A stretch of 50,781 nucleotides of DNA. Origin: a virus. Where the stretch lies: the IMG/VR virus record IMGVR_UViG_3300033075_000810; one strand, given 5' to 3'. Below the pieces are notes generated by a model. It saw nothing but the letters and a program-made list of their open reading frames with translations, was not told the origin of the DNA and searched no databases. The translations under genes and the position numbers were made by a program. Each line of letters begins with the position of its first letter. Position 1 is the first letter of the stretch. Shown piece after piece: positions 1,078 to 49,327 of the stretch.

Positions 1078-1425
1078 ATGAGATTCAAGACCTGGCTGGA
1101 GATGGCCGACGAACTTCGTGCCGCCTGGCAGCACACCAAAGAAAACCAAGGCGTCTGCCAGTTCAACCCGAGCATGGGTTGCCATGATTTCGCCATCGAG
1201 TTGAAAAAGAAACTCGACGGGGCGAAAACCATGACCGTCGCCATCTCCCACAGGGGGCATGAGTCTTATGCCCAGCACTCCTTCGTAGAGTATGGCAATC
1301 GGTACATCGACGCTTCAGGGTTCTATCGATCTCCAGAAGAGCTTGTGAAGAACTACTGTGCCGTCAGCCGCATCCCCTACGACAGGAGTGCGTGGTCAAT
1401 CGTCAACGTCGATGACCTCGATTAG
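1078..1425 (+). CDS. hypothetical protein (N-term MRFKTWLEM motif)
   Basis: 115-aa ORF. N-terminus carries the recurring F-K-x-W-L-E motif. Confidence 0.5.
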   Translation: MRFKTWLEMADELRAAWQHTKENQGVCQFNPSMGCHDFAIELKKKLDGAKTMTVAISHRGHESYAQHSFVEYGNRYIDASGFYRSPEELVKNYCAVSRIPYDRSAWSIVNVDDLD

Positions 1426-2246
1426 GCCACCGAAGGCTGCTTGCCGGGCTTCACCCTGTCCGGCTTGCCTAATCTCGGCTGCTGCCAGTTGGAGGTCATA
1501 CCCGACAGGGAACCTATCTTCTGGGCCAGGTCACCCCTAACCCACTTCGTGCCGCTGTTGGTCTGATACCCCAGCGACCCTAGGGTCTTCTTGGCGAGGA
1601 CGGCGTAGTTCCTTTGGAGCTTGTCGTCCACCGGATGCCACAGGACCACTTCCGGCTGCAACACCTGGGCGAACTGACACAGAGTCCCGAATACCGTCGT
1701 CAGCGTCGTCAGGGGCTTGCCCATCTCTGTCCTGGCGAAGTTCTCGCCCTGGTTCACCCTTGCAACCGGGTCCAGGCCCAGACGATTCCTCACTTTGCCC
1801 ACGAAGCCGGTCGCCGGTTTGATCCTATTCCCGCTGCCCCGCTCCGCGTTGAAGCGAACGTCATAGACGTTGACGCCCTTAAAAGGACTGAGGCCGTAAG
1901 TGTCCCCTGACTCCACGCGGTGGACGAAGGCGGCATAGAACGGCTGGCCCTCGATTGCAAAGTAGGCCATGTAACTCATGTGCCTGCCAGGTGCCGGCGG
2001 ACCCGGCTCCCAGGTCGTATCCTGTGGTGCCCCGCAAGTGACATCGAAGATTTCGTTGAGGATCTCCTCGCTCAGGGCCGGATCTCTCAGTTGCAGGTAT
2101 TCGGTGAACTTCATGCCGGTATCTACGGCATCCTGGCGATGTCTTCTGGCATCCAAGTGCCGCGTGGGGGAGTCGAACCCCTCCTGCCAGGTGTGAAAGA
2201 CCTGTGGCCTCACCGGAAGCACTAACGCGGCGTAAGAGTACCGCAT
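1422..2246 (-). CDS. hypothetical protein
   Basis: 274-aa ORF. True start may be the internal MKFTEYL at 2114. Confidence 0.45.
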   Translation of the reverse strand: MRYSYAALVLPVRPQVFHTWQEGFDSPTRHLDARRHRQDAVDTGMKFTEYLQLRDPALSEEILNEIFDVTCGAPQDTTWEPGPPAPGRHMSYMAYFAIEGQPFYAAFVHRVESGDTYGLSPFKGVNVYDVRFNAERGSGNRIKPATGFVGKVRNRLGLDPVARVNQGENFARTEMGKPLTTLTTVFGTLCQFAQVLQPEVVLWHPVDDKLQRNYAVLAKKTLGSLGYQTNSGTKWVRGDLAQKIGSLSGMTSNWQQPRLGKPDRVKPGKQPSVA

Positions 2247-2315
2247 AGGGGTTACGCTCCCCTCTGTCCTGGGTGAAGGCCAGGTGACCTCACTAGAAGT
2301 CTAATGCGGCGTCAG

Positions 2316-2386
2316 TGGAGCTTAGGGGAATCGAACCCCTATCCCAACCTTGCAAAGGTCGTATCTTCCCGTTAGACGAAAGCCCC
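2316..2386 (-). tRNA. tRNA-Ala(TGC)
   Basis: Hand-folded cloverleaf GGGGCUU..AAGCUCC-A. G3:U70 Ala identity pair. Anticodon loop UUUGCAA. T-loop TTCGATT. Confidence 0.8.
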
Positions 2387-2722
2387 GTCATCATGGTGAA
2401 GTATCCTGTGGCAGTTGGCACAGAGTACTTCGCACTTTTCTATCTCCCTGAGTATCCTAGCCTTGGAGTGACCAAAGCTAACCATCTCTGAGACACACCC
2501 CTCTTTCAGAGTCTCGTCTCTGTGATGGAAGTCGAGTGCGGCTGGGTGGGAGAAAGAACACCTCTGGCACTTGAGAGACTTCTTCAATTCAAAGAACCAA
2601 CTCCTCAGTTCCTTCCTTCGTTCAGCAGTTCTTGCGATCAGCCGTTCTTTGTTCTGCTTGTACCAAACAGCCTTGTAGGTCTTGTTGTAGGCTGCCGCTG
2701 TTTCTTTGTCTTTGAAGGCCAT
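2372..2722 (-). CDS. HNH endonuclease (paralog 1)
   Basis: CxxC...DFHH...CANCHRILH HNH motif. 3' end overlaps the 5' end of tRNA-Ala by 15 nt. Confidence 0.8.
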   Translation of the reverse strand: MAFKDKETAAAYNKTYKAVWYKQNKERLIARTAERRKELRSWFFELKKSLKCQRCSFSHPAALDFHHRDETLKEGCVSEMVSFGHSKARILREIEKCEVLCANCHRILHHDDGAFV

Positions 2723-2766
2723 GCCCTAACAGAGCGTTGCATCCTTGGTTTTTGTTGCAAGCCCCG

Positions 2767-3063
2767 TCAAACCTGACCAAGCATCATCTCAAGGCTCTTG
2801 ACCTGCATCCAGACCTCGGGGTCTTGGTGCAGCTTCAGCATGTTCAAGAGCTTCCTGAGCCTCTTCTGGGCGTCCCGGCTCAGGTAGCCGCTTCGCACCA
2901 CCTTGGTCAGGTAGGTGAGCTTGGCGGTCATCTCGTTGGGCGAGAGCATCTGGTGCTGGCCCGCGATCTGGTCGATCACACGGCCAGCGATCCCGTCCGG
3001 GTCGCCGCCCAGCCATCCCTCGTCCTGCTCCATCAGGAGCAGCATGTCGTAGAACTCGCCCAT
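2767..3063 (-). CDS. hypothetical protein
   Basis: 98-aa ORF in the operon orientation. Confidence 0.4.
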   Translation of the reverse strand: MGEFYDMLLLMEQDEGWLGGDPDGIAGRVIDQIAGQHQMLSPNEMTAKLTYLTKVVRSGYLSRDAQKRLRKLLNMLKLHQDPEVWMQVKSLEMMLGQV

Positions 3064-3079
3064 GACCTTATGTAGTAGC

Positions 3080-47750: not shown

Positions 47751-47757
47751 GCTGCTC

Positions 47758-47943
47758 CTAGATCGTATGCTTCTCGGGTGTCTTCCACCCGTAGATGTGG
47801 GGATAGGTGACGACCTCGGGTAGTTGGGCGTGATCCGACCAGCCGGGGACGGGGTGGTCCTCTTTTAGCCACCCCGGATCTCCCGTCCCGATCTCAAACC
47901 TCTTCCACCGCTTAGGCTCTGGCTTCTCGGGTCCGTCGTACAT
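47758..47943 (-). CDS. small hypothetical protein
   Basis: 61-aa ORF between the two GT genes. Confidence 0.3.
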   Translation of the reverse strand: MYDGPEKPEPKRWKRFEIGTGDPGWLKEDHPVPGWSDHAQLPEVVTYPHIYGWKTPEKHTI

Positions 47944-48689
47944 CAGACCCCCTGGGTCTGGAGTTCACGGAGAAGCTGGGGGATGGCTCGCATGGCCTCC
48001 TCGGTCAGACGCTCAAAGTCGTTGATGTCCAAGGAGAAGTCGCGGTAGTGGTGGACGATGGGGTTCCGCATTACCTGAGGCTTGTAGCCCATGCGGTTAG
48101 CCTTCATCGTGGTGATGAAAGTTGTACCGATCTGGGGCAGGGCCTCGGGGAACTGGCCGATGTCCTTCCAGCACTGGCGGGTCATCAGCAGGCAGTACTC
48201 CTGAATGAAGTCCACCCGCTGGTTCTGCATGACGTAGGACTGCATCTCCACGCCAACCATGCCGCTTGGCTGGGACTCCGAGACGTTGATCAACAGGTCG
48301 ATCCAGCCGGGGTTGAGGACGACCACGTCGGGGTGGAGGAAGATGAAGTACTTGCTGTTCTTGTCGGCTGCGGCCACGCCCTTGTTGGCGGCGGGTGCCC
48401 AGAACAGGTTCTTCTCGTTCCTGATGACCTTGACCTCATCCTTGATGTCATCGAGGAAGTCCTGGCTGTCCTTGCCCGAGGCGTTGTCAACGACGATGAT
48501 CTCGTAGTTGTTGTTGCTGGAGCAGACCGCGATGGACTGGAGAAGGATGTTCAAGTACTCAGGGCGGTCCTTGTGGACGATGATGATGCTGACCTGCTCG
48601 TCTGAGCCGTCGTGCAGGTCAAACACCAACTGAGGCCGGTCACCTTCAAGGGGGTTGTGGGGCTGCTTGGGAAGGATCTGCTGAGGCAT
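47943..48689 (-). CDS. family 2 glycosyltransferase
   Basis: SIIIVHKDRPEYL...IIVVDNASGKD (DxD). Confidence 0.6.
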   Translation of the reverse strand: MPQQILPKQPHNPLEGDRPQLVFDLHDGSDEQVSIIIVHKDRPEYLNILLQSIAVCSSNNNYEIIVVDNASGKDSQDFLDDIKDEVKVIRNEKNLFWAPAANKGVAAADKNSKYFIFLHPDVVVLNPGWIDLLINVSESQPSGMVGVEMQSYVMQNQRVDFIQEYCLLMTRQCWKDIGQFPEALPQIGTTFITTMKANRMGYKPQVMRNPIVHHYRDFSLDINDFERLTEEAMRAIPQLLRELQTQGV

Positions 48690-48713
48690 GAAGCTCCTTT
48701 GAGGGGTCGAGAT

Positions 48714-48923
48714 TTAGTCCTCGACTTCAACCTCAAAGGCGGCTCTCTCGCAGTCACACTCGATAGGCCCAAACTCAGTCGGGAGTACCTCGCGGAACTG
48801 CCGTGCCCTGCCTCTGAGGTATTCGTCGGCACTGGTAGCGGTTCGGAAGGCTTTCTCCACCTTGTGTAGCACGAAGTCGCCGTCAACTTGCTTGGCGGCG
48901 GTGACGATCACGAAGACGTTCAT
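48714..48923 (-). CDS. small hypothetical protein
   Basis: Trimmed to MNVFVIVTAAKQ with AGGAG SD. Confidence 0.4.
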   Translation of the reverse strand: MNVFVIVTAAKQVDGDFVLHKVEKAFRTATSADEYLRGRARQFREVLPTEFGPIECDCERAAFEVEVED

Positions 48924-48970
48924 GTGAACTCCTGGCCTTCCGGCCATAAAAGAGGAACCCTTGTTGCTTT

Positions 48971-49327
48971 TCACTTGCCTTGTTTCGGAGGGATGGGCTT
49001 GCCTTGCGTCGTCCGCGTCCTGTAATTCCAGCCGTCCACCTGCCAGGTGCTGCCTCCCTGACACGGTCTGTGCCACCTGTCCTCATCCGGGTCGGAGTAG
49101 GGCGTGTCGCCCATCGCCTTCTTGCAGGCGTCGGTGTGGTAGTAGCAGACGACCTGCCGGGGCGGGTCGCCTGGGCGGCACGGAATCCAGGGGTGGAAGT
49201 CGCACCACCAGTAGCACTCGTCCTCCGTGGCCGGCGGCAACTCAGGCTCGGAGGGGAACCCCTTCCACTCCTTGGGGGCCTCGTTCAGACCGAGGCACTT
49301 CCAGAACCACTCAAACATCGAACGCAT
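48971..49327 (-). CDS. Cys/Trp-rich hypothetical protein (N-term MRSMFEWFWK)
   Basis: 118-aa ORF. Confidence 0.4.
   Translation of the reverse strand: MRSMFEWFWKCLGLNEAPKEWKGFPSEPELPPATEDECYWWCDFHPWIPCRPGDPPRQVVCYYHTDACKKAMGDTPYSDPDEDRWHRPCQGGSTWQVDGWNYRTRTTQGKPIPPKQGK

Follow-up and report, generated by a model that had tools for sequence, protein, structure and literature searches.

A composite start module joining a T4-late-type box, a predicted leaderless start and a candidate capsid-targeting peptide in an uncultured large phage

The 50,781-bp IMG/VR virus record IMGVR_UViG_3300033075_000810, analysed over its whole length and referred to below as the window, is a piece of an uncultured large phage in which nine proteins begin with the same short peptide motif. 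We report that this motif is real, is selected, and is part of a composite start module. The module as we define it would comprise (i) a T4-late-type promoter box consisting of a -10 element only, (C)TA(A/C/G)ATA in the window and CTAAATA in relatives of lower GC content; (ii) a start codon 4-6 nt after the box, predicted to yield an mRNA lacking both a leader and a Shine-Dalgarno (SD) sequence; and (iii) a short, putatively amphipathic N-terminal peptide, F-K/R-x-W/F/Y-L/M, with a glutamate within the following 0-4 residues. A first-pass annotation of the window had drawn attention to the peptide and had likened it to the capsid targeting sequences of T4-like internal head proteins; what it had overlooked is how tightly this tag is coupled to a promoter-like box and to a start that would be leaderless.

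Our preferred reading, to which we assign a probability of about 0.55, is that the module marks late genes without a leader, each of whose products bears a capsid-targeting propeptide peculiar to the lineage; this propeptide would be removed after glutamate and would load effectors, among them a ParB-like nuclease and HExxH proteins, into the phage head. The peptide would bind the scaffolding core of the assembling prohead and thereby bring its cargo into the head; the prohead protease would cut the peptide off after the glutamate; and the cargo would be ejected with the DNA into the next host. Two HExxH metalloprotease-like proteins and the ParB-like nuclease belong to this candidate cargo, as do a conserved protein without a solved structural relative and others. 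Capsid targeting, cleavage and injection are all predicted here from sequence. Targeting tags in the style of T4 are a known kind; what appears to be new is their occurrence in a distant, uncultured clade, their lineage dialects, and their leaderless late-promoter arrangement.

Motif, box and start codon in the window

A codon-usage model called 71 genes in the window, which has a GC content of ~60% (near 0.85 at third codon positions, GC3) and has most of its genes on that strand's complement, the minus strand. The strict pattern F[KR].[WFY][MFL] occurs within the first 10 residues of seven of the 71 called proteins, whereas 2000 within-protein shuffles yielded a mean of 0.04 and a maximum of two; allowing threonine at the second position (F[KRT].[WFY][MFL]) raises the count to nine against 0.05 expected. 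Across the window proteins the motif has three internal copies, so that the enrichment at N-termini which the first-pass annotation implied is borne out (nine versus three internal). That the similarity might be a chance or compositional artefact of a loose pattern could be argued from the post hoc definition of that pattern, made after the data had been seen, and from one spurious N-terminus among the nine originally listed. We consider this explanation already refuted, given the more than 100-fold excess over shuffles in the 71 window proteins, the independent recurrence of the motif in dozens of other contigs and in homologues numbering more than 100, and its coupling to an independent DNA feature (the box). 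A scan of 86 kb of T4 and Aeh1 (the first 50 kb only of Aeh1) also returned zero matches.

The original list located its N-termini by the low-coordinate ends of their open reading frames (ORFs), of which seven are minus-strand. After correction for strand and true start, eight of the nine held. The exception is 48971-49318 (-), beginning MFEWFWK, which misfits the pattern, has no upstream box and lies within an SD-led operon; its resemblance to the motif is probably due to chance. An additional tagged member, absent from the list, was found at 1422-2114 (-), with the N-terminus MKFTEYLQLRD. Among the nine tags so defined, phenylalanine occupies a residue between 3 and 7 and the closing acidic residue a position between 8 and 15; this residue follows the motif within 0-4 positions in every copy and is glutamate in eight of nine and aspartate in one. 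The L-R-E said to follow several copies is present in the products of 6709-7104 and 24472-25383, and is replaced by L-R-D in that of 1422-2114.

The sequence preceding these genes is equally distinctive. In 9/9 tagged genes a box (CTACATA, CTAGATA, TAGATA or, in two cases, CTAACTA) stands 4-6 nt before the ATG, and in 9/9 an SD is absent, whereas most other window genes have one. Viewed from the side of the DNA, 10 of the 13 TA[ACG]ATA sites in the window have an ATG 3-6 nt downstream (0.29 expected), and seven of the 10 genes so placed encode the tag, the other three having looser aromatic/acidic N-termini. Since a spacer of 4-5 nt would put the transcription start on the A of the ATG or on the base beside it, transcripts of the box-led genes are predicted to be leaderless and to start at that position. 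A scan of positions 1-18000 for terminators and sigma-70 promoters was uninformative for the tagged genes.

Two tagged genes are encoded on the plus strand. Gene 1078-1425 (115 amino acids, aa) is headed by a module at 1067-1101 comprising CTACATA (1067-1073), a 4-nt spacer, the ATG at 1078 and the tag MRFKTWLE (N-terminus MRFKTWLEM, the tag ending at residue 8); it has no SD, and the box falls within the 14 nt between the stop codon of gene 665-1063 and this ATG. Gene 44953-45447 (164 aa) has CTAGATA at 44941-44947, a 5-nt spacer and the tag MEGFRRYFE (MEGFRRYFEAS). On the minus strand, the added member 1422-2114 (230 aa) follows TAGATA (2125-2120) by 5 nt; 3080-4003 (307 aa) follows CTACATA (4014-4008) by 4 nt and begins MITSFKTFME (MITSFKTFMES); and the glycine-rich product of 4921-5472 (183 aa), tagged MMNFREWME (MMNFREWMEQ), lies 5 nt behind the variant box CTAACTA (5484-5478), the longer version of its ORF, to 5514, being one that would overlap tRNA-Gly at 5506-5581. 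Gene 6709-7104 (-, 131 aa) has TAGATA at 7115-7110, a 5-nt spacer and the tag MSQYKTFTEWMVLRE, and 15833-16462 (-, 209 aa), situated between tRNA-Ala and tRNA-Glu, has CTAGATA at 16473-16467, a 4-nt spacer and the tag MEGFKDYMNE. The last two are neighbours: 24472-25383 (-, 303 aa; variant box CTAACTA at 25396-25390, 6-nt spacer, tag MAKSFKNWLALRE), which shows a weak match to the DUF6782 metallopeptidase, and 25389-26204 (-, 271 aa; CTACATA at 26215-26209, 4-nt spacer, tag MRLNFKEWFYSE), a conserved protein rich in His, Asp and Cys. Six of the nine tagged genes lie inside a tRNA array, adjoining an HNH gene.

Searches with Pfam and PHROGs matched almost nothing among the tagged proteins. Their earlier description as a ParB-like nuclease and HExxH peptidases, together with others, is matched by the motifs DGHHRW in 3080-4003, HELRH in 24472-25383 and HELGH in 44953-45447. 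They had also been called otherwise unrelated, which is correct for the tagged cargos beyond the tag itself save for one pair of weak paralogues, 1422-2114 and 15833-16462 (32% identity over 98 aa, E 6e-6). The ParB-like protein of 3080-4003 bears a second, C-terminal copy of the tag at residues 295-304 (residues 295-307 occupying window 3080-3121, -), in the context ...PLVAAE/SFREWMVRRE/KRCR; this copy ends 16 nt before the box of gene 2767-3063 and is kept in a 58% identical homologue, P0122, as AAE/AFRQWLENRE/KRA.

Three further window genes are box-led. Gene 44526-44918 (-, 130 aa) would be leaderless behind CTAAATA (44929-44923) with a 4-nt spacer, and its N-terminus, MRHWKEIAYPNE, is only loosely tag-like; 2767-3063 (-, 98 aa) follows CTACATA (3075-3069) by 5 nt and begins with a degenerate tag, MGEFYDMLLLME; and 10698-10904 (+, 68 aa) follows ATAGATA (10685-10691) by 6 nt and begins MEEVKQHWDARLQM, with no clear tag. 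In the 34 bp at 44919-44952, two box-ATG modules stand back to back (CTAAATA for the gene starting at 44918 (-) and CTAGATA for that starting at 44953 (+)); if both boxes are promoters, they form an extremely compact divergent pair. A separate short gene, 17315-17491 (-, 58 aa; MDYRLEQFMKKHM), appears leaderless behind a canonical sigma-70-type promoter (TTGACA-17 nt-TAGAGT-5 nt-ATG, 17491-17525), and leaderless starts in this phage are thus not limited to the box-type promoter.

The box and its relatives in phages and Planctomycetota

To place the module in a wider setting, relatives were retrieved by two routes. The cargo family of gene 25389-26204 led to 13 IMG/VR loci of 31-52% GC, in which CTAAATA or ATAAATA, a 4-5-nt spacer, an ATG and the N-terminus MNFKxWL..E occur both on the homologue and on unrelated neighbouring genes. 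An exact scan of IMG/VR for CTAAATA-N4-ATG-NNN-TTY-AAR-NNN-TGG returned 32 stretches, mostly from contigs of 50-570 kb; one of these, L044, was rejected as a chance match on a small siphovirus-like contig. Within the loci so selected the tag is present on 54 of 72 box-led ORFs, and several loci hold arrays of four to six tagged genes (e.g. MKTFKQFVEN, MISFKQFLED). Relatives spanning 30-56% GC carry CTAAATA-N4-ATG, then M-x-F-K-x-W-L-(0-3 residues)-E, on many unrelated genes. At least eight untagged window genes are common to tagged contigs, and tagged contigs encode the T4-type proteins UvsX, UvsW, Dda, gp46/47, gp41, gp39, gp25, gp5 and gp32, and also, next to tagged genes, the head completion protein gp4. 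Cultured phages gave no match in a megablast of 20 kb of the window, nor in a tblastn search with tagged proteins from two of the loci (L021 and L015).

A logo of 71 non-redundant box-anchored instances contains information only at C-TAAATA, with no -35 element, and the spacer from box to ATG measures 4 nt in 48 of them, 5 nt in 15 and 6 nt in seven. The T4 late promoter, TATAAATA at -13 to -6, is read by gp55, and the late-promoter consensus of Aeh1, a T4-like phage of Aeromonas, is CTAAATA from -12 (PMC1524935). The boxes described here share with T4-type late promoters the core CTAAATA (in relatives; CTA(C/G/A)ATA in the window) and a -10-only architecture with no conserved -35, and differ in that the third A of TAAATA becomes C or G in the high-GC window phage. 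They differ from Aeh1 late promoters in placement: in Aeh1 the box and the ATG are ~26 nt apart and enclose an SD, and here the distance is usually 4-5 nt. In tagged contigs the same box is also found 20-35 nt upstream of SD-led genes, which argues that it acts as a promoter and not as a translation signal, and one T4-like contig places TATAAATA and an SD before a tagged orthologue of the ParB-like gene. On these grounds we infer that the box is a late promoter. Its interpretation as a host sigma-70 -10 hexamer is unlikely, there being no conserved final T and no -35, and the box being conserved across contigs of 30-61% GC. The window encodes a 172-aa sigma-70-family factor (38941-39459, -) with regions 2 and 4 (Sigma70_r4, E 4e-13), which is a possible reader of the box.

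Leaderless mRNAs are known in bacteria and phages, lambda cI being an example, and are common in Actinobacteria and Deinococcus. As in those cases, the start codon here lies a few nt from a -10-type element with no SD; unlike them, the arrangement is found in one functional class of phage genes and is coupled to a specific box and a peptide tag. The leaderless late-promoter layout is new relative to T4 and Aeh1; neither the sequences of these two phages that were examined nor a limited search of literature texts turned up a description of such an arrangement.

The module also extends into bacterial chromosomes. The closest homologues of gene 25389-26204 (62-67% identity) occur in metagenome-assembled genomes (MAGs) of Planctomycetota (Isosphaeraceae, Paludisphaera, Planctomycetales 71-10), two of the contigs concerned being 2.6 and 7.6 Mb long. 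In four MAGs the homologue is the last gene of a three-gene operon (230, 96 and 275 aa) which, with an HNH gene, forms a cassette; the genes of this cassette have a TA(G/C)ATA box 4-5 nt before the ATG and tag-like N-termini. Among the loci drawn from Planctomycetota MAG contigs (L001-L007), L002 shows features at 4835-6616, 8361-8939 (-) and 9025-10828, its HNH gene encoding 193 aa from a start at 8939 on the minus strand; the 7.6-Mb contig to which L002 and L004 belong further encodes a 593-aa MRFKEWLEE protein with a box. Flanking genes differ from genome to genome (SLFN/DUF4365 and helicases in one; AAA, IS1 and P63C in another), which argues that the cassette is mobile. These occurrences suggest, on sequence grounds, that Planctomycetota are the host phylum of the phage group; the cassettes themselves could derive from phage DNA taken up by the chromosome, or be a homing cassette or a satellite, and host genes that exploit phage signals are a further possibility.

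The peptide as a genome-specific signal and its proposed relation to capsid targeting

Within 73 tag instances, phenylalanine falls at residue 3-6 in 72; taking the first motif residue as position 0, F occupies it in 96%, W/F/Y occupies +3 in 100%, and L, M, F, V or I stands at +4. The first glutamate follows the motif within 0-3 residues in 66 of the 73, and of the 70 tags extending to a glutamate, 66 have a hydrophobic P3 residue (L, W, F, Y, I, M or V) two positions before it. The coding sequence behind this regularity is free: the leucine position uses all six Leu codons, Phe is encoded by TTC and TTT, and Lys by AAA and AAG. Homologues that are SD-led or translationally coupled, and have no box, retain the tag. 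Because synonymous codons vary, the register shifts, and such homologues keep the tag, we conclude that selection acts at the amino-acid level. The same codon variation and register shifts led us to reject the motif as a nucleotide signal such as an internal SD or a downstream box.

These data bear on the proposal that the 5' end common to these genes, from promoter through start codon to first codons, is a regulatory cassette that is mobile or prone to recombine: spreading by recombination, it would shuffle genes under late control, and its peptide would be functionless. Mobile regulatory cassettes of the promoter-early stem-loop (PeSL) type and hyperplastic internal-protein loci are reported for T4-type phages (Arbiol et al. 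2010; Repoila et al. 1994). Like PeSLs, the module is a short conserved 5' regulatory element before many unrelated, variable genes in arrays; unlike them, it is conserved as DNA only over the 7-nt box and otherwise at the peptide level, PeSLs being nucleotide-conserved and placed before early genes. The proposal gains from the fact that box, spacing and first codons always travel together, from the variable arrays in which tagged genes occur, from the HNH endonucleases adjoining them both in the window and in the chromosomal cassettes, and from the hyperplasticity of T-even internal-protein loci. A direct test for conservation of the PeSL type was negative: no whole cassette is conserved at the nucleotide level, the coding part varying synonymously and shifting its register relative to the ATG. 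Copies that share nothing but the 7-nt box as DNA, tags that persist without it, and the invariance of F5 and E12 in homologues of the 25389 family down to 48% identity (32-sequence alignment) together make a functionless peptide improbable.

A second proposal is that the N-terminus merely satisfies leaderless translation or the initially transcribed region, through an unstructured, A/U-rich 5' end or favourable first codons in a genome of 60% GC. All tagged genes of the window do have the predicted leaderless start, and the motif codons TTC, AAG, ATG and GAA are relatively AT-rich for this genome. What is fixed, though, is the order of the residues and not their composition alone; the same order is found in genomes of 30% GC, where AT-richness is not limiting; the three other box-led leaderless genes of the window lack a clear tag; the tag occurs on SD-led genes; and its position relative to the ATG varies. 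We regard this explanation as very unlikely.

The tag varies by genome. Among homologues of the ParB-like protein, it takes the form FKxF.ES, MKSFxEF..E, MKLLMENWRKF.NE or MKFSKLFEHS according to lineage. The 25389 family has an xFKxWL...E(T)LALKG N-terminus across more than 100 sequences, and its FKxWL in the window clade gives way to MKLLxExWRxxLNE in loci L019-L021, where five to nine further genes per 20 kb begin with the same MKLL..W[RK] flavour. The tag therefore co-varies with the genome and not with the cargo, which is the strongest comparative argument that sequence provides: a genome-wide dialect on unrelated cargo is what would be predicted of a tag read by a co-evolving receptor. 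In L019, L020 and L021 (IMG/VR contigs of 68-152 kb) the genes of this different dialect are SD-led, stand in tandem arrays of five to nine per 20 kb and all start with MK[LIV]L[FIM]E[NQSG]W[RK]xxLxE; a GroEL-like chaperonin is encoded on these contigs as well. Text searches of the literature for the tag strings found nothing.

In T4, capsid targeting sequences form the N-terminal propeptides of three internal proteins, IPI, IPII and IPIII (Mullaney and Black 1996, reviewed in PMC9026906 and PMC3012670); genetic work assigns targeting to residues 4 and 7, and processing to residues 8 and 10 (PMC9026906). The resemblance first noted to these sequences survives scrutiny and is closer than had been stated, IPI beginning MKTFKEFTSTTTPVSTITE (MKTFKEF) and IPII and IPIII beginning MKTYQEFIAE in the T4 record. 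Both kinds of peptide are at the extreme N-terminus and 8-15 residues long; both have aromatic residues at i and i+3 and an aliphatic residue at i+4, followed by glutamate, T4 residues 4, 7, 8 and 10 corresponding as a sequence pattern to the F, W/F/Y and L/M of the motif and the Glu after it; both end in hydrophobic-x-Glu, a cut after this Glu being predicted here from the sequence pattern; and both are found on diverse, unrelated, fast-evolving proteins of one genome. The genomic settings also agree, the T4 ip genes flanking a tRNA cluster and the segB homing endonuclease, and the tagged genes of the window lying in a tRNA array beside an HNH gene. T4 Alt is processed at both ends (PMC9026906), which the C-terminal, AAE-preceded tag copy in 3080-4003 and P0122 recalls. 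The differences are that the cargos are not homologous to T4 internal proteins, that T4 ip mRNAs are SD-led where those of the tagged window genes would be leaderless, and that the window phage belongs to a distant, uncultured clade with 60% GC.

A broader comparison is offered by giant phages. The prohead proteases of T4, phiKZ, 201phi2-1 and SPN3US all cut after Glu, and in phiKZ, 201phi2-1 and SPN3US ejection proteins are loaded into the head by means of N-terminal propeptides with the motif S/A/G-x-E or A-x-E (PMC5694885). The predicted cut C-terminal to Glu is common to these propeptides and to the tags, as is the capacity of paralogues to share identical N-termini (SPN3US gp53 and gp54); most of the giant-phage propeptides exceed 100 residues, however, and have a small P3 residue in place of the hydrophobic P3 seen here and in T4. 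No homology to the giant-phage propeptide proteins was seen among the tagged proteins.

In sum, the capsid-targeting interpretation advanced in the first-pass annotation is partly supported: the residue layout, the late-type box and the genome-specific tag speak for it, and no prohead protease, scaffold or capsid gene was found in the window or in the tagged loci searched. The search for the prohead protease gene that the annotation had called for yielded none in the window or in the pieces of tagged loci, searches for head genes having covered 50 kb of the window genome and 2-20 kb pieces of others. PHROGs and Pfam likewise detected no prohead protease or scaffold among ~50 window proteins, and tblastn searches of the window and all loci with T4 gp18-24, hoc, inh and uvsY and with Aeh1 gp55, gp45, gp44, gp62 and regA recovered no head or late-transcription genes.

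Several observations weigh against capsid targeting from late promoters. Searches of ~600 kb of related loci by tblastn with T4 gp20-24 identified no protease, scaffold, portal or capsid gene, and the window, as 50 kb of its genome, contains no homologue of gp55, gp33 or gp45 (BLAST with Aeh1 gp55 and gp45). Its sigma factor was rejected as a gp55 homologue: it shows no similarity to Aeh1 gp55 and, unlike gp55, has a region 4. The late promoters and ip genes of T4 and Aeh1 have leaders with an SD, so that the leaderless layout is without precedent in the reference family; moreover, the dominant 4-nt spacer combined with canonical T4 geometry places +1 on the T of the ATG, and a 1-nt shift of the start must be assumed. 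The glutamate lies mostly at +5, +7 or +8 from the first aromatic residue, compared with +6 in T4, and the exact T4 register is rare. The counts from the 32 stretches are biased, the stretches having been chosen by the pattern itself, although the further members in each locus were not so selected. Finally, one contig of the MKLL flavour has replication genes of the DnaE/RecA/DnaB type and is not T4-like, indicating that tags of this style also exist outside the relatives of T4, and box and tag occur in Planctomycetota chromosomes, an odd setting if a lytic phage used the signal strictly to direct proteins to its virions.

Some of these points would be accommodated if the tag were a lineage-specific address for a destination or partner other than the capsid interior. 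Candidate partners would be a phage chaperone or a protease adaptor timing degradation; candidate destinations, the cell envelope, a compartment, or a factory for replication or transcription. Conservation of amino acids with variation by genome would fit any co-evolving receptor, and the tagged cassettes in bacterial chromosomes, the one flavour in a phage that is not T4-like, and the lack of head genes in the loci searched are all compatible with such an address. Export by Sec or Tat gave a negative test, the tags being 8-15 residues long and amphipathic with an acidic end and having no hydrophobic stretch or twin-arginine; the absence of a hydrophobic core or twin-arginine speaks against export signals generally. 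The i, i+3, i+4 pattern and the hydrophobic-x-Glu end match the T4 targeting sequence, which was defined by experiment, residue for residue, the genes stand behind a late-type box, and the C-terminal copy is bounded by AAE. We rate some other destination or partner as unlikely, although as the most probable of the rival readings.

If the capsid-targeting reading is correct, the proteins injected by uncultured large phages could be listed from sequence, a task that would otherwise need cultures for this clade, and the injected proteins, e.g. the ParB-like nuclease and the HExxH proteins, would likely be anti-defence or host-takeover effectors. The targeting-sequence principle of T4 would then extend well beyond T-even phages, with each lineage having its own tag dialect, and the co-evolution of tag and receptor would be open to comparative study. 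A late-promoter box abutting the start codon predicts, in addition, late mRNAs that as a class have no leader. The copies carried by Planctomycetota chromosomes suggest a host for a phage group with few known hosts, and raise the possibility of host or satellite genes that use phage packaging signals. One elaboration of this idea, which we offer as a long shot, is that the chromosomal cassettes, instead of being dead phage DNA, are genes of the host or of a satellite that have been placed under the phage's late promoter and given its capsid address. They would remain silent until a related phage infects; its late machinery would then transcribe them, and progeny heads would take up their products. 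Virions would be poisoned in this way, as by a Trojan-horse defence, or a hitch-hiking element would spread, be it only its proteins or the element as a whole.

The cargo of the 25389 family has properties of its own. An AlphaFold model of the 25389-26204 product has an overall pLDDT of 93.6 (core >95), and renders the tag as a short detached helix at residues 5-10 with a pLDDT of ~61; Foldseek of this model against PDB gave no match at E <= 0.001. Residues H116, H131, D132, H136, H155, C160, C170 and E179 are invariant in the family; given these residues and a very confident model that has no PDB neighbour, it may represent a new fold of metal-dependent enzyme. Inside gp205 of Rhodococcus phage E3 (858 aa, annotated 'structural protein') lies a homologous domain, as in proteins of ~200 Mycobacterium phage records (e.g. 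Catera, ScottMcG, Spud); the annotation of E3 gp205 is an indirect hint, at the level of sequence homology, that the family may be present in virions.

Other features of the window

ARAGORN identified 31 tRNA or tRNA-like genes in the window, all on the minus strand, at 2157-17196 and 27615-28389. The set covers most amino acids, with duplicates for Lys-CTT (x2), Gln-CTG (x2), Met (x2) and Asp (x2), and five of the tRNA-like genes have irregular anticodon loops; tRNA genes are interleaved with tagged genes and the HNH endonuclease. The HNH ORF (4474-4842, -; phrog_2255, E 4e-23) overlaps tRNA-Asn (4438-4511) at its 3' end by ~38 nt as called; the gene call or the boundary of the tRNA may need correction, unless the endonuclease gene is inserted against the tRNA.

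The window further encodes a TROVE/Ro60-like protein, an NAD-dependent DNA ligase, glycosyltransferases and an amidoligase, together with a dUTPase, a thioredoxin and the HNH endonuclease. A PhoH-like ATPase (42821-44536, -) contains a LAGLIDADG/Hom_end homing-endonuclease domain at residues ~250-340, an insert that is probably an intein. Adjoining the TROVE/Ro60-like gene (28663-30615, -) on its downstream side, the interval 27616-28389 (-) holds three tRNA-like elements with aberrant anticodon loops; the same neighbourhood includes a 94-nt tRNA-Arg-like element and, at 27912-28009, a weak match to YrlA (Y RNA-like) scoring 28.9 bits, below the gathering score of 69. The Ro60-like gene, the tRNA-like elements and the YrlA-like match may constitute a phage Ro60/Y-RNA module.

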